A stretch of 64,000 nucleotides of DNA, from assembly GCA_022827785.1 (NCBI GenBank), contig JAJEIM010000006.1, positions 15,842 through 79,841 on the forward strand, written 5' to 3'. Position 1 is the first letter of the stretch, and each line of letters begins with the position of its first letter. A model generated the notes under the pieces. That model was not told where the DNA came from and did no database searches. It was given only the letters and a program-made list of their open reading frames with translations. The translations under genes and the position numbers were made by a program. The stretch comes from Acidimicrobiia bacterium (GTDB lineage Bacteria > Actinomycetota > Acidimicrobiia > Spongiisociales > Spongiisociaceae). Below, piece after piece: positions 30,404 to 46,235 of the stretch.

Positions 30404-30475
30404 TTCGGATGCCGTCGGACGGGTCCCTCGCATATGCACCCACCATGGCCCCCGGCTACCATCGCGCCGATCCGG

Positions 30476-30549
30476 CGGGTGTAGTTCAGTGGTAGAACAT
30501 CAGCTTCCCAAGCTGAGAACGGGGGTTCGATTCCCCTCACCCGCTCCCC
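30476..30549 (+). tRNA. tRNA-Gly (anticodon CCC)
   Basis: Acceptor stem GCGGGTG/CACCCGC, D-loop AGTTCAGTGGTAGAAC, anticodon stem-loop CAGCTTCCCAAGCTG, T-loop GGTTCGATTCC. The 3' CCA is not encoded. Confidence 0.9.
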
Positions 30550-34910: not shown

Positions 34911-35708
34911 CTATGTCCAGCCGAAGTGGTCGATGGGGCCCTCGCCGCGGCCCAGGTTCCATCCGGCGGCGCCGGTGATGGCGCGCGATACCCAGGCTCG
35001 GGCGTCGGCGATGGCCACGATCAGGTCGGCGCCGGTGGCCAGGCGGGCCGCTACGGAGGCCGAGAGCGCGTCCCCGGTCCCGTGGACGTTCCGCGACCGT
35101 ACCCGGCGTCCCGGGAGCGCGTGGGTGTGGATCCCGTTCGAGAACACGTCCACCAGGGGCCGGTCACGGGCCATCCGCCCGCCGGTTACCAGGAAGGGTG
35201 TTCGGGTGGTGCGGGCCAGGTACTCCGCCACGGCCCGCTGGTCGCTCTCGTTCTCGACGGGTCGGCCGGCCAGCAACGCCGCCTCCCGGTGGTTGGGCGT
35301 GGCCAGGTCGGCTCGCGGGATCAGGGCTTCGAGATAGGCGTCGATGGTGGATCCGTCCACCAGCGACCTGCCGTTCCGATCGACCAGGACCGGGTCGATC
35401 ACCAGGTTGGGTAGCCGGGCCGCGCGTTCCGCCACCAGCCGGACCACCTCGGCCCGGCCCAGCAGTCCGGTCTTGGTGGCGTCGGGCGGCAGGTCGGTGG
35501 CGACCGCTTCCAGCTGGGAGGAGATCATCCCGACCGGCACCTGCTCGGCCCGAGCCACTCCCCGGGTGTTCTGGGCGGTGACGGTGGTGATCACGGTGGT
35601 GGCGAAGACGCGGTGCGCCGACAACGTCTTGAGGTCGGCCTGGATCCCGGCGCCGGCGCCGGAGTCGCTGCCGCCGATCGTCATCACCGTCTTAGGGGTA
35701 GCTGTCAT
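34911..35708 (-). CDS. thiD: hydroxymethylpyrimidine/phosphomethylpyrimidine kinase
   Basis: Ribokinase-like PfkB fold with the ThiD blocks [19 protein letters not shown] and the anion hole GTGDALSA. Its ATG overlaps the thiQ stop (ATGA). Confidence 0.85.
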
Positions 35709-37501
35709 GTGCTCCAGCCGAGGAAGGTGTCTTGGGCGGTCCCGCGCTCGCAGCCGGATCGCTGCACGATGCCTACCCGGTCCGATTCAACCGTGGTATT
35801 GGTGCACCCGCCGGCATCGTAGGCCTGGTAGGTCACGCGGCCACGGTCCACCGGGACGTGCTCGCCATCGAGGCCGAGCGCGGACGGCCCGCTCCACCGT
35901 ACTTCGATCGGAGGGTCGTCGCACCGGGTGAATAGCTCGGACCACACGAGCGGCGATCGAAGATGGTCGCCGTCGCACAGGAGGTGGCGCACCACCACGT
36001 CCTCGCCGGTGTCAAGGCCCTCGATCCTGGCCGGCCACCGGCCAAGGCGCCCCTCGCCAGGGGTGCGCGGTCCGATGGTGAGGCGGTAACGGGCCCCCGG
36101 CGCCCAAGCGAAGTCCCTGGTGTTCGGATCGAGGGGCGTGGACGGTAGGGACGACTCCGTTCCGGGCAGGATGGTGCCACCGTGGTCGTAACCACCCCAG
36201 TTGACGGCCAGGTTCCGGGGATGGCGGGGATTCCACTGGATCCCGGTGTGGGCGCCTCCATGGTGGCGACCGGGCGACCAGAAGGATGCCTGGATCGCGA
36301 AGAAGGCCAGGCGGCTGACCTCCGGCGGCTTCAGCACTTCCAGGATCACCGACACGGATGCCAGGGGGACATCGGGGACATCCCACCAGACATGGAACGA
36401 GGAAGCCCCGTTAGGGGATGGTGGTAATCCTCGGTCGCGAACGGGGCCCGTGACCACCGGTTCGGACCGAGTTCGAGGAGCGTCGGCGGAGCATGGCGAC
36501 TCGGGCAGCAAGACAACCCTCTCGGGATCTATCTCCACGAGCACGCGGGTTCCCCTAAGAGGACCGGTACCCGAGGTGTGCACGACAAGCGGATGGCCGG
36601 AGCAGTTCACCTCCACACGGGTCTGCCCGGCTACGAAGGTGGTCGCCTCCACCGTCCCGGCCAGGTTCCCGGTCGGGCTCAAGGCGGCGCCATCGGGCCG
36701 GATGACCACCCGGTGGCGGCCGTCCGGAAGATGTGTAGGGACTGCGCCCCAGGGGGTAGTGGCGAAACCGGCCCTCACCTCCACATCGGCGAAGTTATCG
36801 AACCCGAGGAAGCGGGCCACGAACTCGGTGGCCGGTCGTCTCCACAGTTGCTCGGGCGTGTCGACCTGGCGGATCTTTCCCCGGTGCAGGATCGCCACCC
36901 GGTCGGCGATGGCGAATGCCTCGTCCTGGTCGTGGGTTACGTAGAGCGCCGTGATCCCTATCCGCCGCAAGAGTTGGGACAGCTCGGGTACCAGCCGGGC
37001 GCGCAGGGCCCGGTCGAGAGCACCCACCGGTTCGTCGAGCATCAGTAGTTCCGGTTCGGGCGCCAGTGCCCGGGCAAGGGCGACCCGTTGCTGTTCGCCA
37101 CCCGAGAGGGACTCGATCCCGCGGTCCCCGTACCCGTGGAGGTCGACCCAAGAGAGCACCTCCGCGACGCGCTCCCGGGTTGAGTGGCGGTCCCTTCCCT
37201 GCATCCGGAGGCCGAAGGCAACGTTCTCGGCCACGCTCAGGTGGGGGAACAGCGCGTAGTCCTGGAACATCAAGCCCACCCCGCGCTGATGCACGTCGAC
37301 TCGGGTTATGTCGCGGGATGCCAATTCGATCGTCCCGGTTCCCGGCCTCTCCAAGCCGGCGATGGTCCGCAGGAGGCTCGACTTACCCGAGCCGGACGGA
37401 CCCAGCACGGCCATCACCTCCCCGGACCTCATCGACAGATCTATACCGTCCAGCGCACGGTGGTTCCCGTAGTCCAGCGTGATGTCGATCAACTCGAGCA
37501 C
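35705..37501 (-). CDS. thiQ: thiamine-type ABC transporter ATP-binding protein (ThiQ/FbpC-like) fused to a C-terminal extension of about 250 aa of unknown function
   Basis: GTG start overlapping the thiP stop (TAGTG). Walker [10 protein letters not shown], signature [15 protein letters not shown], Walker [13 protein letters not shown], and a TOBE-like domain ending about residue 345. The reading frame then continues without a stop for about 250 codons of protein-like sequence with high GC3. Confidence 0.75.
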
Positions 37502-39135
37502 TAGAACTCCCCGAGGCCGGCCACCCGGTAGCGGTCGATGGCCATGATTATCACTGTCGTGAGGACCATGAGCACGGTACTCAAGGCCAGTGCCTGCCCG
37601 AGATTGGCAGCCCCCGGCTGGCCGAGGAGGCGGAAGATGGCGGTAGGGATGGTCGGCCGGCCGGGTCGTATGAGGAAGGCGGTGGCTCCGAACTCGCCGA
37701 GTGACACCGCCGCCGCGAAACCGGCCCCGACCAGCGCCGCCCGGCTGATGATCGGCAGCTCCACCTCCCGGAAGACCCTCCGGGGCGAGGCTCCGAGGAC
37801 GGCGGCTGCCTCGCGGAGGCGGGGCTGCACGGATCGGAGCACCGGGGTCACCGTGCGGATCACGAACGGCGCCGCGACCACCGAATGGGCCAGCGGTATC
37901 AGCCAGACCGAAGTGCGGAGGTCCACGGGCCAATCGAAGGCGACCAGGAAGCCGAAGCCGATCGTGACCGCCGACGTACCGAGCGGGAGCATCAGGAAGG
38001 TATCGAGCCTTGCGCCCATCCGGCCGGGGCGCCGGGCGATCACCACGGCCGAGGCGAGACCGGCCGCCACGGCGGGGACCACAGCCGCCGCAGCGAACCA
38101 CAACGAGTTGACGATCGCCTCGGCGGGGTCGACGAAGGGGGTGGCGCCCCGGACCAGGCTCGCGAAATGGTCCAAACCCGGCCCGCTGGAGGTAGCGAGC
38201 GACCTCCACACGAGGGAGCCGATCGGTGCCCCGAGGTAGAGGAGCATCGAGGCGACGGTCGTTCCCACCACCAGGTACTGCCCCGCGGTGGCGGGCCGGC
38301 GGGCGACGGTGCGGCTCGAACGCAGGGGAAGCCGCCGAGCGTGGCGCCGCTGGAGGCGGGTGTACGCCCACAGGGCCGTCGCCACCCCCGCCATCTGGAC
38401 GAGCGCCAAAGCAGCGGAGGCGGCCAGGTCGAGGTTGATGGTGGCCTCCCGCCACACTGCCACCTCGATGGTTGCGTAGCTGAAGCCTCCCAGGATCAGC
38501 ACCACCCCGAAAGACGTGAAAGTGAACAGGAACACGATGGAGGCGGCCGCGGCGATCGAGGGGAGCAGGAGGGGTAGCGTGACTCGCAGGAAGGCCTGTG
38601 CCCGGTTGGCGCCCAACGCCCGTGCGGCCTCCTCGAGCCGCGGATCGAGGAGCTCCCAGAAGCTGCCCACCATGCGCACCACCACCGCGTAGTTGAAGAA
38701 CACGTGGGCGATGAGGATCGCCCAGGCCGTCTGGCGCAGATCCACGCCCAGCGGCCCGCCTGGACCCAGTAGGGCCAGGTAAGCGGCCCCCACGACCACC
38801 GTGGGCAGGACGAACGGGACCGTGACCGCCGCCCTCAGCAGCCTCCGGCCGAAGAACGAGTACCTGGCCAGGACGTAGGCGCCGGGCAGGGCGAACACCA
38901 GGGTGGCGGCTGTGGAGGCTGTGGCCTGCCACACCGTGAACCAGGCCGCGCGGCGGAGCGATCCCTTGGTGGCGATCTCCACGAACGGGGAGAGGTCCAG
39001 ACCGCCGTCGAGGGTCAGGCTCCGCAGCACCACCCGGACCAGCGGGTAGGCGAATGCGAGCCCGAAGAAGACGATGGGGACGGCGACCAGCCACCGTCCC
39101 GTCCCGTTCTTCAGGAGGCTACGACCTCGATCCAT
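37501..39135 (-). CDS. thiP: thiamine-type ABC transporter permease (duplicated TMD, ThiP/FbpB-like)
   Basis: About 544 aa with two ABC permease halves, each carrying an EAA loop (EAARALGAN..., EAAAVLGASPRRVF). Start at the internal MDRGRSLL. The 150 codons of the track ORF upstream of this overlap thiB and are rejected. Confidence 0.8.
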   Translation of the reverse strand: MDRGRSLLKNGTGRWLVAVPIVFFGLAFAYPLVRVVLRSLTLDGGLDLSPFVEIATKGSLRRAAWFTVWQATASTAATLVFALPGAYVLARYSFFGRRLLRAAVTVPFVLPTVVVGAAYLALLGPGGPLGVDLRQTAWAILIAHVFFNYAVVVRMVGSFWELLDPRLEEAARALGANRAQAFLRVTLPLLLPSIAAAASIVFLFTFTSFGVVLILGGFSYATIEVAVWREATINLDLAASAALALVQMAGVATALWAYTRLQRRHARRLPLRSSRTVARRPATAGQYLVVGTTVASMLLYLGAPIGSLVWRSLATSSGPGLDHFASLVRGATPFVDPAEAIVNSLWFAAAAVVPAVAAGLASAVVIARRPGRMGARLDTFLMLPLGTSAVTIGFGFLVAFDWPVDLRTSVWLIPLAHSVVAAPFVIRTVTPVLRSVQPRLREAAAVLGASPRRVFREVELPIISRAALVGAGFAAAVSLGEFGATAFLIRPGRPTIPTAIFRLLGQPGAANLGQALALSTVLMVLTTVIIMAIDRYRVAGLGEF

Positions 39136-40160
39136 TCCTCGATCCAGCGCGACCGGTTGGCGTCTATCTCTCCGGGAGCCACCGCAGCCGGCTGGTCCGG
39201 TATCTGGGTGTACCTGACGAACTCGTCGGGCAACTCGGCCTTCTCGTTGGCGGGGAAGACGAACATGTTGAGCGGAATGTCCTCCTGGAAGGTGAGCCCG
39301 AGCATGAAATCGACCAGCTGCCGGGCCGCGTTGGGAACCGGCGTTCCTGCCAGGATCCCGGCGAACTCGATCTGGCGGAAACATCCGGCCAGCACCACCC
39401 CCGTGGGCGCCTCGGTGACCGGCGGGTCGGCGTAGATCACCTCGGCCGGAGGCGACGATGCATACGACACCACGATCGGACGGTCCCCGCCTCCCGACCC
39501 GCCGGAGAAGGAACCGTAGTAGGCATCCTCCCACCCGGCCGTGACCAGTACATCGTTGGCCACCAGGTCCGTCCAGAAGCTCTGCCACGGGTAGTCGCCG
39601 TCTTCGCCGAAGGTGGCGATGGTCGCCAGCAGGAACGCCAGGCCGGGGGACGACGTGCCCGGATGCTCCACCACGAGCAATCCGGCGTATTCGGGGTCGG
39701 TTAGATCTCTCAGGGTGGAGGGTGGCTGGAGGCCCATCCCCGCCAGACCGGCGATGTCGTAGTTGAGGCAGACGTCCCCGAAATCGATCGGGGTCACCCT
39801 CGTGTCGAGTTCCAACGAGTCCGGAACGTCGGCGAGCCCGGGCGACTCGTACTCCTCGAACAGATCCTCGTCGAGGGCACGGCCCAGGAAGGTGTTGTCG
39901 ATGCCGAACATGACGTCCGCCACCGGGTTGTCCTTCGTGAGCACCGCCTGATTGACCATGGTGCCGGCGTCCCCGGCCTCCAGGTGCTCGACGGTATGTC
40001 CGGTCTCCGCCTCGAACGCCGCAAGCGTCCCCTCGCTGAGGTAGAAGGAGTCGTGGGTGACCAGCCGGATCGTCTGGGGACCCGAGTCCTCCGGCGTGTC
40101 CTCACCGCATCCGGCAATCATCACCACCAGGGCGACGAGGGCAATCCCGAACCTTCTCAT
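39111..40160 (-). CDS. thiB: thiamine/Fe3+-type ABC transporter substrate-binding lipoprotein (TbpA/ThiB-like)
   Basis: Start at the internal MRRFGIALVALVVMIAGCGE (signal peptide plus lipobox). The periplasmic binding protein sequence is of the TbpA family. It lies directly downstream of a TPP riboswitch. Confidence 0.8.
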   Translation of the reverse strand: MRRFGIALVALVVMIAGCGEDTPEDSGPQTIRLVTHDSFYLSEGTLAAFEAETGHTVEHLEAGDAGTMVNQAVLTKDNPVADVMFGIDNTFLGRALDEDLFEEYESPGLADVPDSLELDTRVTPIDFGDVCLNYDIAGLAGMGLQPPSTLRDLTDPEYAGLLVVEHPGTSSPGLAFLLATIATFGEDGDYPWQSFWTDLVANDVLVTAGWEDAYYGSFSGGSGGGDRPIVVSYASSPPAEVIYADPPVTEAPTGVVLAGCFRQIEFAGILAGTPVPNAARQLVDFMLGLTFQEDIPLNMFVFPANEKAELPDEFVRYTQIPDQPAAVAPGEIDANRSRWIEEWIEVVAS

Positions 40161-40199
40161 GCGCGCTCCTTCCGCCGGCCGGTTAGCGGGGGGAGGGGC

Positions 40200-40300
40200 G
40201 GAGACAACTTCCTGCGCCGGCATTATCCGGATCAGGTTCCAACGGTCGGAGACCTGCGGTCTCCCTCTCAGCCCTTCCCGGGCTCCCGTGCTTGGCACAA
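40200..40300 (-). promoter_or_regulatory. TPP (THI-box) riboswitch
   Basis: The reverse complement reads CACGGGAGCCCGGGAAGGGCUGAGAGGGAGACCGCAGGUCUCCGACCGUUGGAACCUGAUCCGGAUAAUGCCGGCGCAGGAAG. It contains the invariant CUGAGA and ACCUGAUC(C/U)GGAUAAUGCC(A/G)GCG(C/U)AGG elements. About 45 nt downstream lies the thiB SD GGAAGGAG, with a possible CUCCGCC anti-SD. Confidence 0.85.
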
Positions 40301-40693
40301 CCCTAGTGGCTGTATGCGGAATGGCCCCGGCTCCTCCTACTCGCGGCCCGGCCCGTCCTTCGGCGACAAAGGGGTTGAAACTGTCACACCGCCGCTATAC
40401 GTTGCTGGATAACCGTAAATACCAGCGTCCGGCACCGACGTCGACCGGATCGTGTGAGGGACCAAATCGTTCGAGGCCGCCTGTCGAGGGCATAGCGGGC
40501 CGCGCCTCGGACCAAGGTGGTGGCGGCGGGGGAGGGCCCAGCGGGCGGAGCCCGCTTGCCGCGATTTTCGCGTTCTTGGTCGATGGGGTGGAGGTGGCGG
40601 AGCGTGGATCGTAACGGCTGGGCCGGCGCGCGATAATCCGGCCAACGTAGGGCCAGGGCCGGATAGATACGGTGCCTGTCAGGGAGCGCCAGC

Positions 40694-41491
40694 ATGTCCA
40701 GCAGTTCACCTCGACCGGTCGTGCGGATCAGCGCGGGGGAGACCGTAGAGCGGGAGGATCTGCTTCCGGCGGAGGAGCCGGTCGAATTCCGGCTCCAAGG
40801 GGTCCCGATTGCGGTCCTGATGCGGACTCCGGGCCATGATGAGGAGTTGGCCCGGGGCTTCGCCCTTACCGAGGGCATCATCCTGCGTCCCGAGGAACTG
40901 GTGGCAGTCCGGGCTTTGCCGGGCCTGGACGGGGCAGGACGCTACGACCTGGTCCTCGCCGATGGGATCCGTGTTGACGAGGAGCAGTTCCGCCGCAACC
41001 TCTACGCCACCTCCTCGTGCGGGGTGTGCGGCAAGGCCTCCATCGATGCGGTCCGGGTGGCGGCGCCGCCCCTTCCGACCGGTCCGGTCATTCCGGCCGG
41101 GCTGCTGCTGGAACTTGTGGAGGCGATGCGCTCGGCCCAGGCCGGATTCGACGCCACCGGCGGGCTCCACGCCGCCGCCGCATTCACCGCGGAGGGCGAG
41201 TTCCTGGGTGTCCGCGAAGACGTGGGCCGGCACAACGCCATGGACAAGCTGGTGGGCGTACTCACGTCCCGCCACTGGCCCCTGGCGGAGATGGTGGTCA
41301 CCGTCTCCGGCCGGGTGTCGTTCGAGCTGGTTCAGAAGGCGGCGGTGGCCGGGATCAGCGTTCTGGCCGGCGTGTCGGCCGCCTCCTCCCTGGCGGTCGA
41401 CCTCGCCGATGAGCTCGGCCTGACCGTGGCGGGCTTCGTCAGGCCGGGCGGCTTCAACCTCTACACCCATCCCCACCGCATAGCGCCTTGA
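40694..41491 (+). CDS. fdhD: formate dehydrogenase accessory sulfurtransferase
   Basis: FdhD signature SSCGVCGK with catalytic Cys, and GGLHAAA...GRHNAMDK. Confidence 0.85.
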   Translation: MSSSSPRPVVRISAGETVEREDLLPAEEPVEFRLQGVPIAVLMRTPGHDEELARGFALTEGIILRPEELVAVRALPGLDGAGRYDLVLADGIRVDEEQFRRNLYATSSCGVCGKASIDAVRVAAPPLPTGPVIPAGLLLELVEAMRSAQAGFDATGGLHAAAAFTAEGEFLGVREDVGRHNAMDKLVGVLTSRHWPLAEMVVTVSGRVSFELVQKAAVAGISVLAGVSAASSLAVDLADELGLTVAGFVRPGGFNLYTHPHRIAP

Positions 41492-43610: not shown

Positions 43611-44789
43611 TCACCCATCCTGGCGGGTGATCGCCTCGTACAGCGCGGTCGAGAGGGCGCGGGGGCGGCGGTCGGTGCCTGGTTCCATGTAGGTCTGGTT
43701 CATGGCATAGCCGAAGCCCACTTCCGCAACCGGGTCGGCATAGCCGACAGCTCCGCCGATCCCCTGCATACCGAACGCCTCGTCGTTGGGTCCCAACGAC
43801 AGGCCGCCGGGTGTGGAGCGGCCGTAGCCGAGGGCGACGCGGGATGGGTTTCCGAATACGGCATCGGTGCCCCGGGCCTGCTCGGCCGAGTGAGCGACGA
43901 CCGACTCCTCGGATACGATCCGCGCCCCGTCGATCGCTCCACCACCGGCCAGCATGGCATACAGGCGCGCCACGCTCCTGGCGTCGCCGATTCCGTTGAC
44001 CGCCGGCGCCTCCGCCGTCCAGAAGTCCGGGTCGTTGGCCAGATCGAGCGGGCTCCGCCGCTCAGGGCCGATGAAGAGAGCGGCGCCGGCGGGATTCTCG
44101 GGTGCCCAGATGACCCTCAGCAGATCGGCCGCCGGGTCGGGATCGTGCAGGAGCCTGGCCACCCGCCCGTGCTGTTCGACGGGCAGCCCGATCCAGAGCT
44201 CCAGGCCTAGGGGGCGGGCCACCTCGGCCGCGAAGAACTCCCCGAGAGTACGGCCGTCGATACGGCGCACCAGTTCCCCCACCAGCCAGCCGTAGCTGAT
44301 CGAGTGGTAGCCGAGCTTGGTTCCCGGCTCCCAGGCGAGGGGTGCCGCGGCGAGCCGGGCCGCGATCTCATCGGTGCGATGCCACCCGGCCGCGTGGTCG
44401 CCGCTTACGAGATCCCAGTACCGGGGGAAGGACGGAAGCCCGAGCGTGTGGCTGAGGATGTGCCGGACCAGCGCGGTGTCCTTGCCCTGGGCAGCGAACT
44501 CGGGCCAGTAAGCGGCTACGGGGGCGTCAACATCCATCAGGCCGCGGTCGGCCAGGATCTGGGCCACCAGCGCCGTCGGCCCCTTGGTCACCGAGAACAG
44601 GAAGACGAGCGTGTCCTCTGCCCACGGGCGATCCGGCGTCGCCATCCCGGCCCAGATGTTGACCACACACTCGCCCCCCACGTATGCGCAGAACTCGGCC
44701 CCCACCTCGCCTCGGACGGCGAAGTTCTGTTCGAACGCGTCCACGACCGGTTCGAAGCCTGCGGCTACGTGCCCGCTGATGTCGGTCAC
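43611..44789 (-). CDS. serine hydrolase, beta-lactamase/esterase class C family
   Basis: SxxK active-site motif SVTK in the FLFSVTKGPTALV context. YxN-like and C-terminal blocks are present. Confidence 0.8.
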   Translation of the reverse strand: MTDISGHVAAGFEPVVDAFEQNFAVRGEVGAEFCAYVGGECVVNIWAGMATPDRPWAEDTLVFLFSVTKGPTALVAQILADRGLMDVDAPVAAYWPEFAAQGKDTALVRHILSHTLGLPSFPRYWDLVSGDHAAGWHRTDEIAARLAAAPLAWEPGTKLGYHSISYGWLVGELVRRIDGRTLGEFFAAEVARPLGLELWIGLPVEQHGRVARLLHDPDPAADLLRVIWAPENPAGAALFIGPERRSPLDLANDPDFWTAEAPAVNGIGDARSVARLYAMLAGGGAIDGARIVSEESVVAHSAEQARGTDAVFGNPSRVALGYGRSTPGGLSLGPNDEAFGMQGIGGAVGYADPVAEVGFGYAMNQTYMEPGTDRRPRALSTALYEAITRQDG

Positions 44790-44972
44790 TGCTGGCGTTC
44801 TCTCACCCGGCGGAACACTAGGAGGGCGCCGAAACTCGGCGCAAAGTGGTCACGTGATAGCCGGTGCCCACGGACGCGGCAGGTGTTTCCCGGCCGGCTA
44901 TCAGGATCCGTATTCGTCTGCCCGCTAGTACCCTGGGGATACGTCCAGAGCGGAGGTGACGGCATCACCGAC

Positions 44973-46235
44973 ATGCGGCCGATCGAGCAGGTCGACTCCG
45001 AGGTAGCGGACCTGATCCGCCGGGATGTTGCCCGCCAGAACACCCACATCCACCTGATCGCGTCAGAGAACTTCGCGTCGCCCGCCGTCATGGAGGCGTG
45101 CGGGTCGATCTACACCAACAAGTATGCCGAGGGCTACCCGGGGCGGCGCTACTACGAGGGCTGCGAATGGGTGGATCGCCTCGAGAGCCTGGCCATCGAG
45201 CGGGCCAGGGCGCTGTTCGGCGCGGAGTACGTCAACGTGCAACCCCACTCCGGCGCCCAGGCCAACATGGGGGTCTACTTTGCTCATCTTGAACCCGGGG
45301 ATACGGTGCTCGGCCTCAGCTTGGCGGAGGGTGGCCACCTTACCCACGGCTCGCCGGTGAACTTCTCGGGTCGCCTTTATCGCTTTGTTGCCTACGGGGT
45401 CGATCGGCGCACCGAGCGGATCGACATGGACGAGGTGAGGGACAAGGCGCTTGAACATCGTCCCAAGATCGTCCTCGCCGGCTACTCCGCCTATTCCCGC
45501 CACCTCGACTACGACGCCTTCCGGTCCATAGCTGACGAGATCGGGGCGCTGTTCATGGTGGACGCGGCCCACTTCATCGGCTTGGTCGCGGGCGGGGCGT
45601 CACCCAATCCCGTGCCGATCGCCGACATGGTGACCGCCACGACCCACAAGGCGCTCCGGGGACCGCGAGGCGGCATCATCATGGCCAAGGAGCAGTACGG
45701 GGCCGGTCTCAACAAGGGGGTCTTCCCCGACATGCAGGGGGGGCCGATCATCAGCCAGATCGCGGGCAAGGCGGTCTGCTTCGGGGAGGCTTCGACGGAG
45801 GCTTACCGAGCCTACGCGCGCCAGATCGTGGCCAACGCCTCGGCCATGGCCGGCGCGTTCGTCGAGCGGGGAGTGCGGGTGGTCTCGGGGGGAACCGACA
45901 ACCACCTGCTGCTGCTCGACATGCGATCCATCGACGAGGACCTGACCGGTAAGGAAGCCTCGACCCTGCTCGACTCGATCGGGATCACCCTGAACCGCAA
46001 CGGCATCCCGTACGACCCGAGGCCGCCCTACATAACCAGCGGCCTGCGCATCGGGACGCCCGGCATCACCACCTGCGGGATGCAAGAACCCGAGGCGGCC
46101 CGGATCGCCGACCTGATCAACCGCGCCCTCCGGCACCGGACGGACGAGGCGAGAGTCAGGGAGGTCCGGAGCGAAGTCACGGAGCTGGCAGCGGCGTTCC
46201 CGCCCTATCCCCCCGACTTCCCCGGCCACGTCTAG
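44973..46235 (+). CDS. glyA: serine hydroxymethyltransferase
   Basis: LIASENFASPAVMEA, and PLP-Lys context TTHKALRGPRGG. The start is the internal ATG. The upstream part of the 643-aa track ORF is antisense to the serine hydrolase gene. Confidence 0.9.
   Translation: MRPIEQVDSEVADLIRRDVARQNTHIHLIASENFASPAVMEACGSIYTNKYAEGYPGRRYYEGCEWVDRLESLAIERARALFGAEYVNVQPHSGAQANMGVYFAHLEPGDTVLGLSLAEGGHLTHGSPVNFSGRLYRFVAYGVDRRTERIDMDEVRDKALEHRPKIVLAGYSAYSRHLDYDAFRSIADEIGALFMVDAAHFIGLVAGGASPNPVPIADMVTATTHKALRGPRGGIIMAKEQYGAGLNKGVFPDMQGGPIISQIAGKAVCFGEASTEAYRAYARQIVANASAMAGAFVERGVRVVSGGTDNHLLLLDMRSIDEDLTGKEASTLLDSIGITLNRNGIPYDPRPPYITSGLRIGTPGITTCGMQEPEAARIADLINRALRHRTDEARVREVRSEVTELAAAFPPYPPDFPGHV

Follow-up and report, generated by a model that had tools for sequence, protein, structure and literature searches.

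Does the RNA that precedes an ABC transporter operon on the minus strand of this Acidimicrobiia DNA sense TPP, and what do the genes behind it import and process? The stretch analysed here, 64 kb in length, is called the window throughout; within it, the initial annotation had recognised a TPP riboswitch upstream of genes that it named thiB, thiP, thiQ and thiD. TPP riboswitches control transporters of thiamine and its precursors as well as biosynthesis (thi) genes, and they are among the most widespread RNA regulators (PMC3766115). We consider it probable, from the sequence and its relatives, that the locus is a four-gene, translationally coupled salvage operon for the import of a precursor or of thiamine, with a TPP riboswitch in its leader that would serve as an OFF switch by sequestering the Shine-Dalgarno (SD) sequence. 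The riboswitch as such is ordinary; new are a conserved uncharacterised domain within the TPP regulon, referred to here as domain X, a corrected gene content, and a transporter that is not a ThiBPQ equivalog.

The aptamer and the start of the first gene

All 4227 Rfam families were scanned with cmscan against the whole 64-kb window, and two matches exceeded their gathering scores, the TPP riboswitch family RF00059 and one tRNA. The RF00059 match (E 1.5e-10) is full-length, covering model positions 1-105 of 105, and its score exceeds the gathering score, so that the riboswitch called in the initial annotation stands; the two motifs on which that call was built, CUGAGA and ACCUGAUCCGGAUAAUGCCGGCGCAGG, are both there on the minus strand as described, within 40299..40192. 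The elements of the leader are the following.

40192..40299, minus strand: TPP riboswitch aptamer (RF00059; 65.2 bits against a gathering score of 54.3, and comparative pairing)
40292-40290 / 40208-40206, minus strand: P1 helix of the aptamer (Rfam-derived structure)
J3/2 region, minus strand: CUGAGA, in the pyrimidine-sensor arm
ACCUGAUCCGGAUAAUGCCGGCGCAGG, minus strand: P4/P5, the pyrophosphate-sensing arm
40300..40305, minus strand: candidate -10-like promoter hexamer TAGGGT, 8 nt upstream of P1 (from conservation)

The minus-strand sequence from 40299 to 40192 begins UGUGCCAAGCACGGGAGCCCGGGAAGGGCUGAGAGGGAGACCGCAGGUCUCCGACCGUUGGAACCUGAUCCGGAUAAUGCCGGCGCAGGAAGUUGUCUC and contains the conserved core of the class, CUGAGA together with ACCUGAUC..GG.UAAU.CC.GCG.AGG in the pyrophosphate-sensor arm, which is invariant across the 10 orthologs. 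The P1 helix is short, with only ~3 bp in the Rfam register. A plain MFE fold of the leader lacks the aptamer fold (z = 0.28) and is uninformative because the leader is 66% GC; we therefore used Rfam and comparative analysis. When the Rfam-derived structure was laid over an alignment of ten orthologous leaders, standard pairs occupied 94.3% of the alignment cells, against 26-49% in controls in which the pairing partners had been slid, and four pairs, located in P1 and P3, had changed on both sides in a compensatory manner; P2, P4 and P5 are uninformative on pairing because they are mostly invariant. The aptamer precedes the orthologous substrate-binding protein (SBP) gene in all nine related Acidimicrobiia genomes in which the 5' end is intact. 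Its location is also that of a TPP riboswitch, in a 5' leader before the gene for a TbpA-family SBP whose operon has thiD as its last gene, and the distance of 45 nt given initially is confirmed by the 3' strand of P1, which ends at 40206, and the ATG at 40160. The identity of the aptamer, its conservation and its covariation are thereby established, and its sequence marks the RNA at 40192..40299 (-) as a TPP riboswitch that is predicted to respond to TPP. Because TPP riboswitches are ubiquitous on such genes (PMC3766115), it is a new member of a well-known class.

Just 5' of the aptamer, a TAnnnT hexamer occurs at about the same place in 10/10 orthologous leaders (variants TAAGGT, TAAGAT, TAGAGT, TATAAT, TATAGT and TACAAT). 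A generic sigma-70 promoter scan of the leader gave no relevant match, and it is the conserved TAnnnT box by itself that suggests a promoter at TAGGGT. ATG 40160 is the start codon of the SBP gene; AAGGAG precedes it by 5 nt, and the N-terminus of the encoded protein (MRRFGIALVALVVMIAGC) is a lipoprotein signal. Upstream of this ATG, the reading frame remains open as far as a GTG at 40298 (395-aa ORF), and a gene caller that takes the longest ORF would include the entire aptamer and hide the RNA. The SD, the lipoprotein signal and the orthologs all back ATG 40160 as the true start, and part of the annotation value of the riboswitch is that it fixes this start.

The surroundings are those of an ordinary chromosome, with genes for ATP synthase, SHMT, adenylosuccinate lyase, FdhD and MoCF. 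The fdhD gene (40694..41491, +) is divergent from the operon (region 40300..40694). The tRNA detected by cmscan, tRNA-Gly(CCC) at 30474..30548 (+), is the only tRNA and the only other Rfam match in the window. The SHMT ORF (44304..46235, +) carries a ~225-aa N-terminal extension that overlaps a convergent beta-lactamase-family gene (43611..44789, -); it is probably an over-long ORF in high-GC DNA, with the true start near residue 227.

The transporter and its likely substrate

The genes behind the riboswitch overlap by 25 nt (SBP/permease), 1 nt (permease/ATPase) and 4 nt (ATPase/thiD), in agreement with the four genes overlapping by 1-25 nt in the initial annotation; in the last of these overlaps, the ATG of thiD lies across the stop codon of the preceding gene (ATGA). 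This operon structure is established, as are the family assignments of the encoded proteins.

39111..40160, minus strand: SBP, a TbpA/ThiB-subfamily lipoprotein of 349 aa with lipobox IAGC (TIGR01254, 239.9 bits)
37501..39135, minus strand: fused double-domain ABC permease, 544 aa (BPD_transp_1 twice)
35705..37501, minus strand: ATPase::X fusion gene, 598 aa (ABC ATPase, TOBE, linker and domain X)
36505..37501, minus strand: ABC ATPase with TOBE_2, residues 1-332 of the 598-aa product (ABC_tran, 122.5 bits; TOBE_2 at residues 265-332)
36422..36504, minus strand: Pro/Ser/Ala/Arg-rich linker from the ATPase to domain X (from the translation)
35705..36421, minus strand: domain X, 238 aa, predicted to be all-beta and ConA-like, putative divergent DUF3472, in frame with the ATPase
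34911..35708, minus strand: thiD, HMP/HMP-P kinase, 265 aa (TIGR00097, Phos_pyr_kin)

A TbpA/ThiB-family lipoprotein had been placed first in the operon, and the SBP indeed carries a lipoprotein signal and, at 239.9 bits, lies above the cut-off of 93.4 for the subfamily model TIGR01254. Since that model is named 'thiamine ABC transporter substrate-binding protein', the protein would not be annotated only as iron-related or generic, contrary to what had been supposed. The gene names thiB, thiP and thiQ, in turn, overstate orthology, as the ThiB, ThiP and ThiQ equivalog cut-offs are all failed. The SBP falls below the thiB equivalog TIGR01276 (93 bits against a cut-off of 317). The permease resembles ThiP/PhnU2 in length and architecture and reaches no NCBIfam cut-off; of the ThiP models, NF006952 comes closest (110 bits against 679), with TIGR01253 at 82 against 395. 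The ATPase scores 163 bits against 245 for thiQ TIGR01277, and its closest models are PhnT2, PotA and FbpC; the best similarities of permease and ATPase taken together are to PhnT2, PotA, FbpC, CysA and ModB/PhnU types. ThiD passes TIGR00097 over its full length (255.8 bits against 204.95), with a Phos_pyr_kin match of 240 bits.

Among solved structures, the SBP has its best relative in E. coli TbpA (2QRY, E 1.2e-29). A passage of PMC8518494, citing Soriano 2008, describes Tyr27 and Trp197 of TbpA as sandwiching the thiazole ring of the ligand. In the window protein and its nine orthologs, the equivalent of Trp197 is an invariant Trp210, and the equivalent of Tyr27 is an equally invariant His36. 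His36 could still stack on the ligand, and the replacement may reflect a different ligand preference. Given the failed equivalog cut-offs and the change from Tyr27 to His, the substrate of the transporter is therefore uncertain, and by its sequence the transporter is best described as a TbpA-family relative rather than a demonstrated ThiBPQ ortholog. The operon resembles tbpA(thiB)-thiP-thiQ of E. coli/Salmonella in the TPP riboswitch (THI-box) in the leader of a three-component ABC importer, in an SBP of the TbpA structural family, and in a fused double-domain permease of ~540 aa. It differs from that system in that the ThiB, ThiP and ThiQ equivalog cut-offs are not reached, in an ATPase that carries TOBE and domain X where ThiQ has ~230 aa, in the presence of thiD within the operon, in the His at the position of Tyr27, in the high-GC actinobacterial host, and in the lipoprotein nature of the SBP.

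The operon would import thiamine or, more likely, an HMP-like pyrimidine precursor, which ThiD would phosphorylate toward TPP; we infer the precursor as the likelier substrate because ThiD is co-translated. We give a smaller, if real, chance to a classical importer of thiamine, TMP or TPP, that is, a functional ThiBPQ with ThiD and domain X as mere co-located passengers: imported thiamine requires a thiamine kinase or pyrophosphokinase and not ThiD, the thiB equivalog is missed by a wide margin, the His in place of Tyr27 is invariant, and across the whole clade either fusion or ATGA overlaps join ThiD, X and the ATPase. What speaks for such an importer is not only the SBP, which passes TIGR01254, has E. 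coli TbpA as its best solved relative and keeps the thiazole-sandwiching Trp197, but also domain X, whose homologs outside the clade lack thiamine neighbours and whose wider family is fused to extracellular glycan-type domains.

The preferred reading, import of a pyrimidine precursor for ThiD, has a parallel in the ThiXYZ-YlmB-TenA-ThiD system of Bacillus halodurans and relatives, which Jenkins and colleagues reportedly described in 2007 as taking up formylaminopyrimidine and converting it to HMP. The two would share their logic, a TPP-riboswitch-regulated ABC importer coupled to cytoplasmic enzymes that end in ThiD. They differ in the binding protein, ThiY being of the NMT1/THI5 family whereas the SBP here is of the TbpA family, and in the processing enzymes, which are an M20 deformylase and TenA in that system, whereas the sole candidate here is the unrelated ConA-fold domain X. 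The TOBE-bearing ATPase with its fused X and the position of thiD inside the operon set the locus apart from this system as well as from thiBPQ.

Domain X and its fusion to the ATPase

At 598 aa, the product of the third gene far exceeds the ~230 aa of ThiQ, a size that had gone unremarked in the initial annotation. The ATPase does not have the architecture of ThiQ (nucleotide-binding domain only) and carries TOBE_2 and a 238-aa extra domain, which is domain X. The linker between them is homologous to the N-terminal extension of stand-alone X proteins in transporter-less relatives, and GC3 periodicity is high, in the same frame, and continuous over the ATPase/X junction. C-terminal regulatory or trans-inhibition domains are found on the ABC-importer ATPases MalK, ModC and MetN. 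TOBE_2 belongs to that class of extra cytoplasmic domain placed after the nucleotide-binding domain; X, in contrast, follows the TOBE as a further domain, a ConA-like jelly roll of 238 aa that also exists as an independent protein family.

The distribution of the operon was followed by tblastn of the window's proteins against 84 loci. The order SBP-permease-ATPase-X-ThiD is found in ten genomes (L005, L006, L007, L012, L015, L017, L020, L021, L037 and L048). The in-frame fusion, 598-600 aa in length, is present in L005, L006, L007, L012 and L017 as well as in the window; in L015, L021 and L037, ATPase and X are separate genes, with the X start overlapping the ATPase stop (ATGA); and in L020 and L048, the gene for a small membrane protein of ~160 aa sits between the two. 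This inserted gene (L048 6915..7385, L020 2865..3350) encodes a multi-pass protein with weak YknW/Yip1-like similarity (E 0.057). It was considered as a tenA and rejected, since its product is a small multi-pass membrane protein.

In ~14 further genomes, X and ThiD are adjacent and the transporter is absent. The event can be seen at close range in L002, which shares 89% DNA identity with the window: a deletion from ~40600 to 37106 (window coordinates) has taken out the riboswitch together with the SBP, the permease and the greater part of the ATPase, of which a TOBE remnant survives in fusion with X. The scar is visible where L002 1564..1810 aligns to window 40602..36834. X-thiD is likewise found without transporter or riboswitch in L001, L003, L008-L011 and others, and the synteny fdhD / MoCF_biosynth / X-thiD / ADH_zinc is common to relatives with or without the transporter. 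No TPP aptamer was detected beside X in transporter-less relatives, either with Rfam on L001-L004 or with a custom model, R1, on 84 sources; very divergent aptamers could escape R1 because it was trained on close relatives. As read from these sequences, the riboswitch and transporter module is lost repeatedly and the X-thiD coupling is retained.

The fusion is established: a sequencing frameshift was dismissed because the fusion recurs in five other assemblies. That it is nonetheless a neutral accident of a lost ATGA overlap, or an assembly artefact, with X unconnected to the transporter or to thiamine, seems to us rather unlikely. A one-base change would suffice to turn the ATGA overlap of L015, L021 and L037 into an in-frame fusion, and X stands alone in ~400 other genomes; against this, the 598-600-aa ORF persists in the window and five independent species-level assemblies in which X has diverged to 72% identity, GC3 periodicity is unbroken at the junction, the order ATPase-X-ThiD is maintained down to 52% X identity, and the X-thiD coupling survives deletion of the transporter.

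Homologs of X number 362 in a collection of 5.8 billion proteins, nearly all of them stand-alone 'hypothetical' proteins of ~260 aa from Acidimicrobiia MAGs, and a profile search shows that the family is small, with only 433 clusters among 1.84 billion representatives. A genome scan found X in 414 species genomes, the closest being those of sponge symbionts (Candidatus Spongiisocius / Spongiisociaceae) with up to 92% identity, a likeness by which the organism of the window is placed. Outside the clade, X is monocistronic or differently embedded, and no thiamine genes were found among the conserved neighbours of distant X homologs. Literature searches yielded only centipede-venom and virus papers for DUF3472, and nothing relevant for Spongiisociaceae thiamine biology.

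The window's X has no Pfam match even at E <= 10, PF11958 included, and no NCBIfam match, and the sequence profiles of the PDB gave no meaningful match; five of 27 X family members do match PF11958 (DUF3472) weakly, with E down to 4e-7. An AlphaFold2 model built on the 27-sequence alignment is confident and all-beta (pLDDT 91.8, pTM 0.90). In a Foldseek comparison with the PDB, the closest folds are those of 8pn3, the HC7 glutamic O-glycoprotease (TMq 0.72), and of 4qhw, a protein from Bacteroides, followed by the eqolisin and neprosin glutamic peptidases and GH16 glucanases. The model thus presents X as a concanavalin-like jelly roll and supports its placement as a divergent DUF3472, a relationship drawn at the level of fold only. 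To DUF3472 (PF11958), HC7 and BACCAC_02064 (4qhw), the likeness is one of fold (TMq 0.68-0.72, Foldseek E ~1e-8) at ~10-14% sequence identity, and those proteins are secreted and glycan-associated whereas X is here cytoplasmic and fused to an ATPase. The likeness to glutamic peptidases of the eqolisin, neprosin and HC7 types is likewise at fold level (TMq 0.47-0.72); Q44, Q62 and E162 are invariant in X.

The residues and motifs that are invariant in the X family comprise NGASS, Q44, H58, Q62, NWGGY, NTRD, YR, E162, C167, GGC206xNT and Q220, and the polar residues among them are Q44, H58, Q62, N74, Y78, N100, T101, R102, D103, R113, E162, C167, C206 and Q220. They are maintained in multidomain family members too, X being fused elsewhere to GH16, GH5, PKD, Laminin_G_3, cadherin or GDSL domains. 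Such an invariant set looks enzyme-like. Stand-alone X proteins outside the fused clade, such as P0082, P0032, P0065 and P0037, lack a signal peptide and open with a short stretch that looks amphipathic (MRSFLARVFG, MGRFRDALEALF, MDNWMKQFW and MGWLATLLARIF). This stretch may form a helix that docks on a membrane or a partner, and the ATPase tether may have taken its place.

The genetic coupling suggests that X acts together with the transporter and ThiD. Tentatively, we propose that X could be a previously unrecognised component of thiamine-pyrimidine salvage, either a cytoplasmic hydrolase or an ATPase-tethered ligand sensor. We do so because X is ATGA-coupled or fused in frame to the ATPase, because it is ATGA-coupled to thiD across ~24 species, because X-thiD is kept after loss of the transporter, and because its constellation of invariant polar residues is enzyme-like. 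As a hydrolase, X would convert an imported amino- or formylamino-pyrimidine, or a thiamine breakdown product, to HMP for ThiD, and would then be a non-homologous replacement for TenA or YlmB. As a ligand-sensing domain on the ATPase, it would gate uptake by trans-inhibition.

The expression platform and the meaning of the locus

The spacer between the aptamer and the first gene contains two elements that recur in the orthologs.

40186..40203, minus strand: C-rich tract CUCCGCCCCUCCCCCCGC, candidate anti-SD sequestor (CCCUCC-type tract in 10/10 orthologs)
40166..40176, minus strand: SD region GGCGGAAGGAG, core AAGGAG, 5 nt before ATG 40160

A terminator scan found no intrinsic terminator (no hairpin with a U-run) between the aptamer and the ATG. 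In each of the ten leaders, P1 is immediately followed by a C-rich tract that contains CCCUCC or a variant of it, and an SD of the GGAGG type comes 20-30 nt later; the SD of the orthologs reads GGGAGG, GGAGGAGG or AGGAGG at the same place. Because a terminator is absent and a conserved C-rich tract faces the SD, translational control is likely. Across the ten leaders, duplexes of the tract with the SD window are computed at -16 to -22 kcal/mol, and those of the tract with the G-rich 5' half of the aptamer (GGGAAGGGCUGAGAG) at -16 to -36 kcal/mol. The second of these contacts is recovered by RNAalifold, which joins GGG in ACGGGAG to CCC in the C-rich tract. In the window leader, the unconstrained MFE fold forms the aptamer:anti-SD alternative; once the aptamer is imposed as a constraint, CUCC (40195-40192) is paired with GGAG in the SD. 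The computed SD accessibility changes little between the constrained and free ensembles (0.31 vs 0.26).

Which helix would do the sequestering is harder to say. The window spacer holds 16 C and 4 G in 28 nt, and the orthologs are similarly C-rich; with so much C in the window, shuffled spacers form duplexes with the SD that are just as good (z = 0.01 for the native anti-SD:SD duplex), and the particular helix therefore cannot be pinned down in the window. Pairing between tract and SD that depends on nucleotide order, as judged against shuffles, is seen only in L037, L048 and L021 (z = -4.6, -2.7 and -2.1). In L048, CCUCCUG is matched with CAGGAGG, and in L021, CUCUCC with GGAGAG; matching changes of this kind in distant orthologs speak for a sequestor helix. 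The translational platform of the initial annotation is accordingly plausible in its mechanism, with a missing terminator and a conserved C-rich tract, and does not hold in its exact helix: CUCCGCC is located at 40203..40197, and its pairing with GGCGGA was rejected, being available only in the window and L005, not in the other orthologs, and no better than shuffles.

We infer an OFF switch that works through SD sequestration. When TPP is abundant, the aptamer would be folded and the C-rich tract 3' of P1 freed to pair with the SD region, which would stop the first gene from being translated and, because the genes are coupled, the remaining genes too. At low TPP, the C-rich tract would be taken up by the aptamer's G-rich 5' half, and the ribosome-binding site released. 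The translational thiM riboswitch of E. coli likewise has no terminator after its aptamer and has a pyrimidine-rich, SD-complementary segment that can alternatively pair with part of the aptamer; the platform here differs in being very short (~45 nt) and C-rich, with several candidate pairing registers. We favour translational SD sequestration as the most likely mechanism, somewhat better than evenly supported by these sequences, with a Rho-type contribution as a minor alternative. Rho-dependent control has been described for some enterobacterial riboswitches. That the riboswitch acts mainly on transcription in this way, with SD sequestration secondary or absent and the C-rich, G-poor spacer forming a rut-like site exposed or left untranslated upon TPP binding, is improbable: it would suit the base composition of the spacer here and in the orthologs, the absence of an intrinsic terminator and the statistically indistinguishable anti-SD helix of the window, but the tract of ~25 nt is far below typical rut-site length, the tract of nearly all orthologs contains an exact CCUCC complement of the SD, and in L037, L048 and L021 the complementarity to the SD is order-specific (z -2 to -4.6), with matched variants.

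The riboswitch links vitamin B1 metabolism, in uncultured Acidimicrobiia that live as sponge symbionts, to an ABC permease and an ATPase that would otherwise look generic, and this is its wider value for annotation. Guilt by association with a TPP riboswitch was recently the ground on which salvage genes, oarX among them, were nominated (PMC11223231). Domain X is a concrete candidate of the same kind, fused or translationally coupled to a transporter ATPase and to ThiD within a TPP regulon, and it is worth testing because the salvage of thiamine precursors is incompletely known and matters for vitamin exchange in marine and host-associated settings. The recurrent deletion of riboswitch and transporter in close relatives provides, in addition, a small natural experiment on the loss of vitamin uptake in symbionts.
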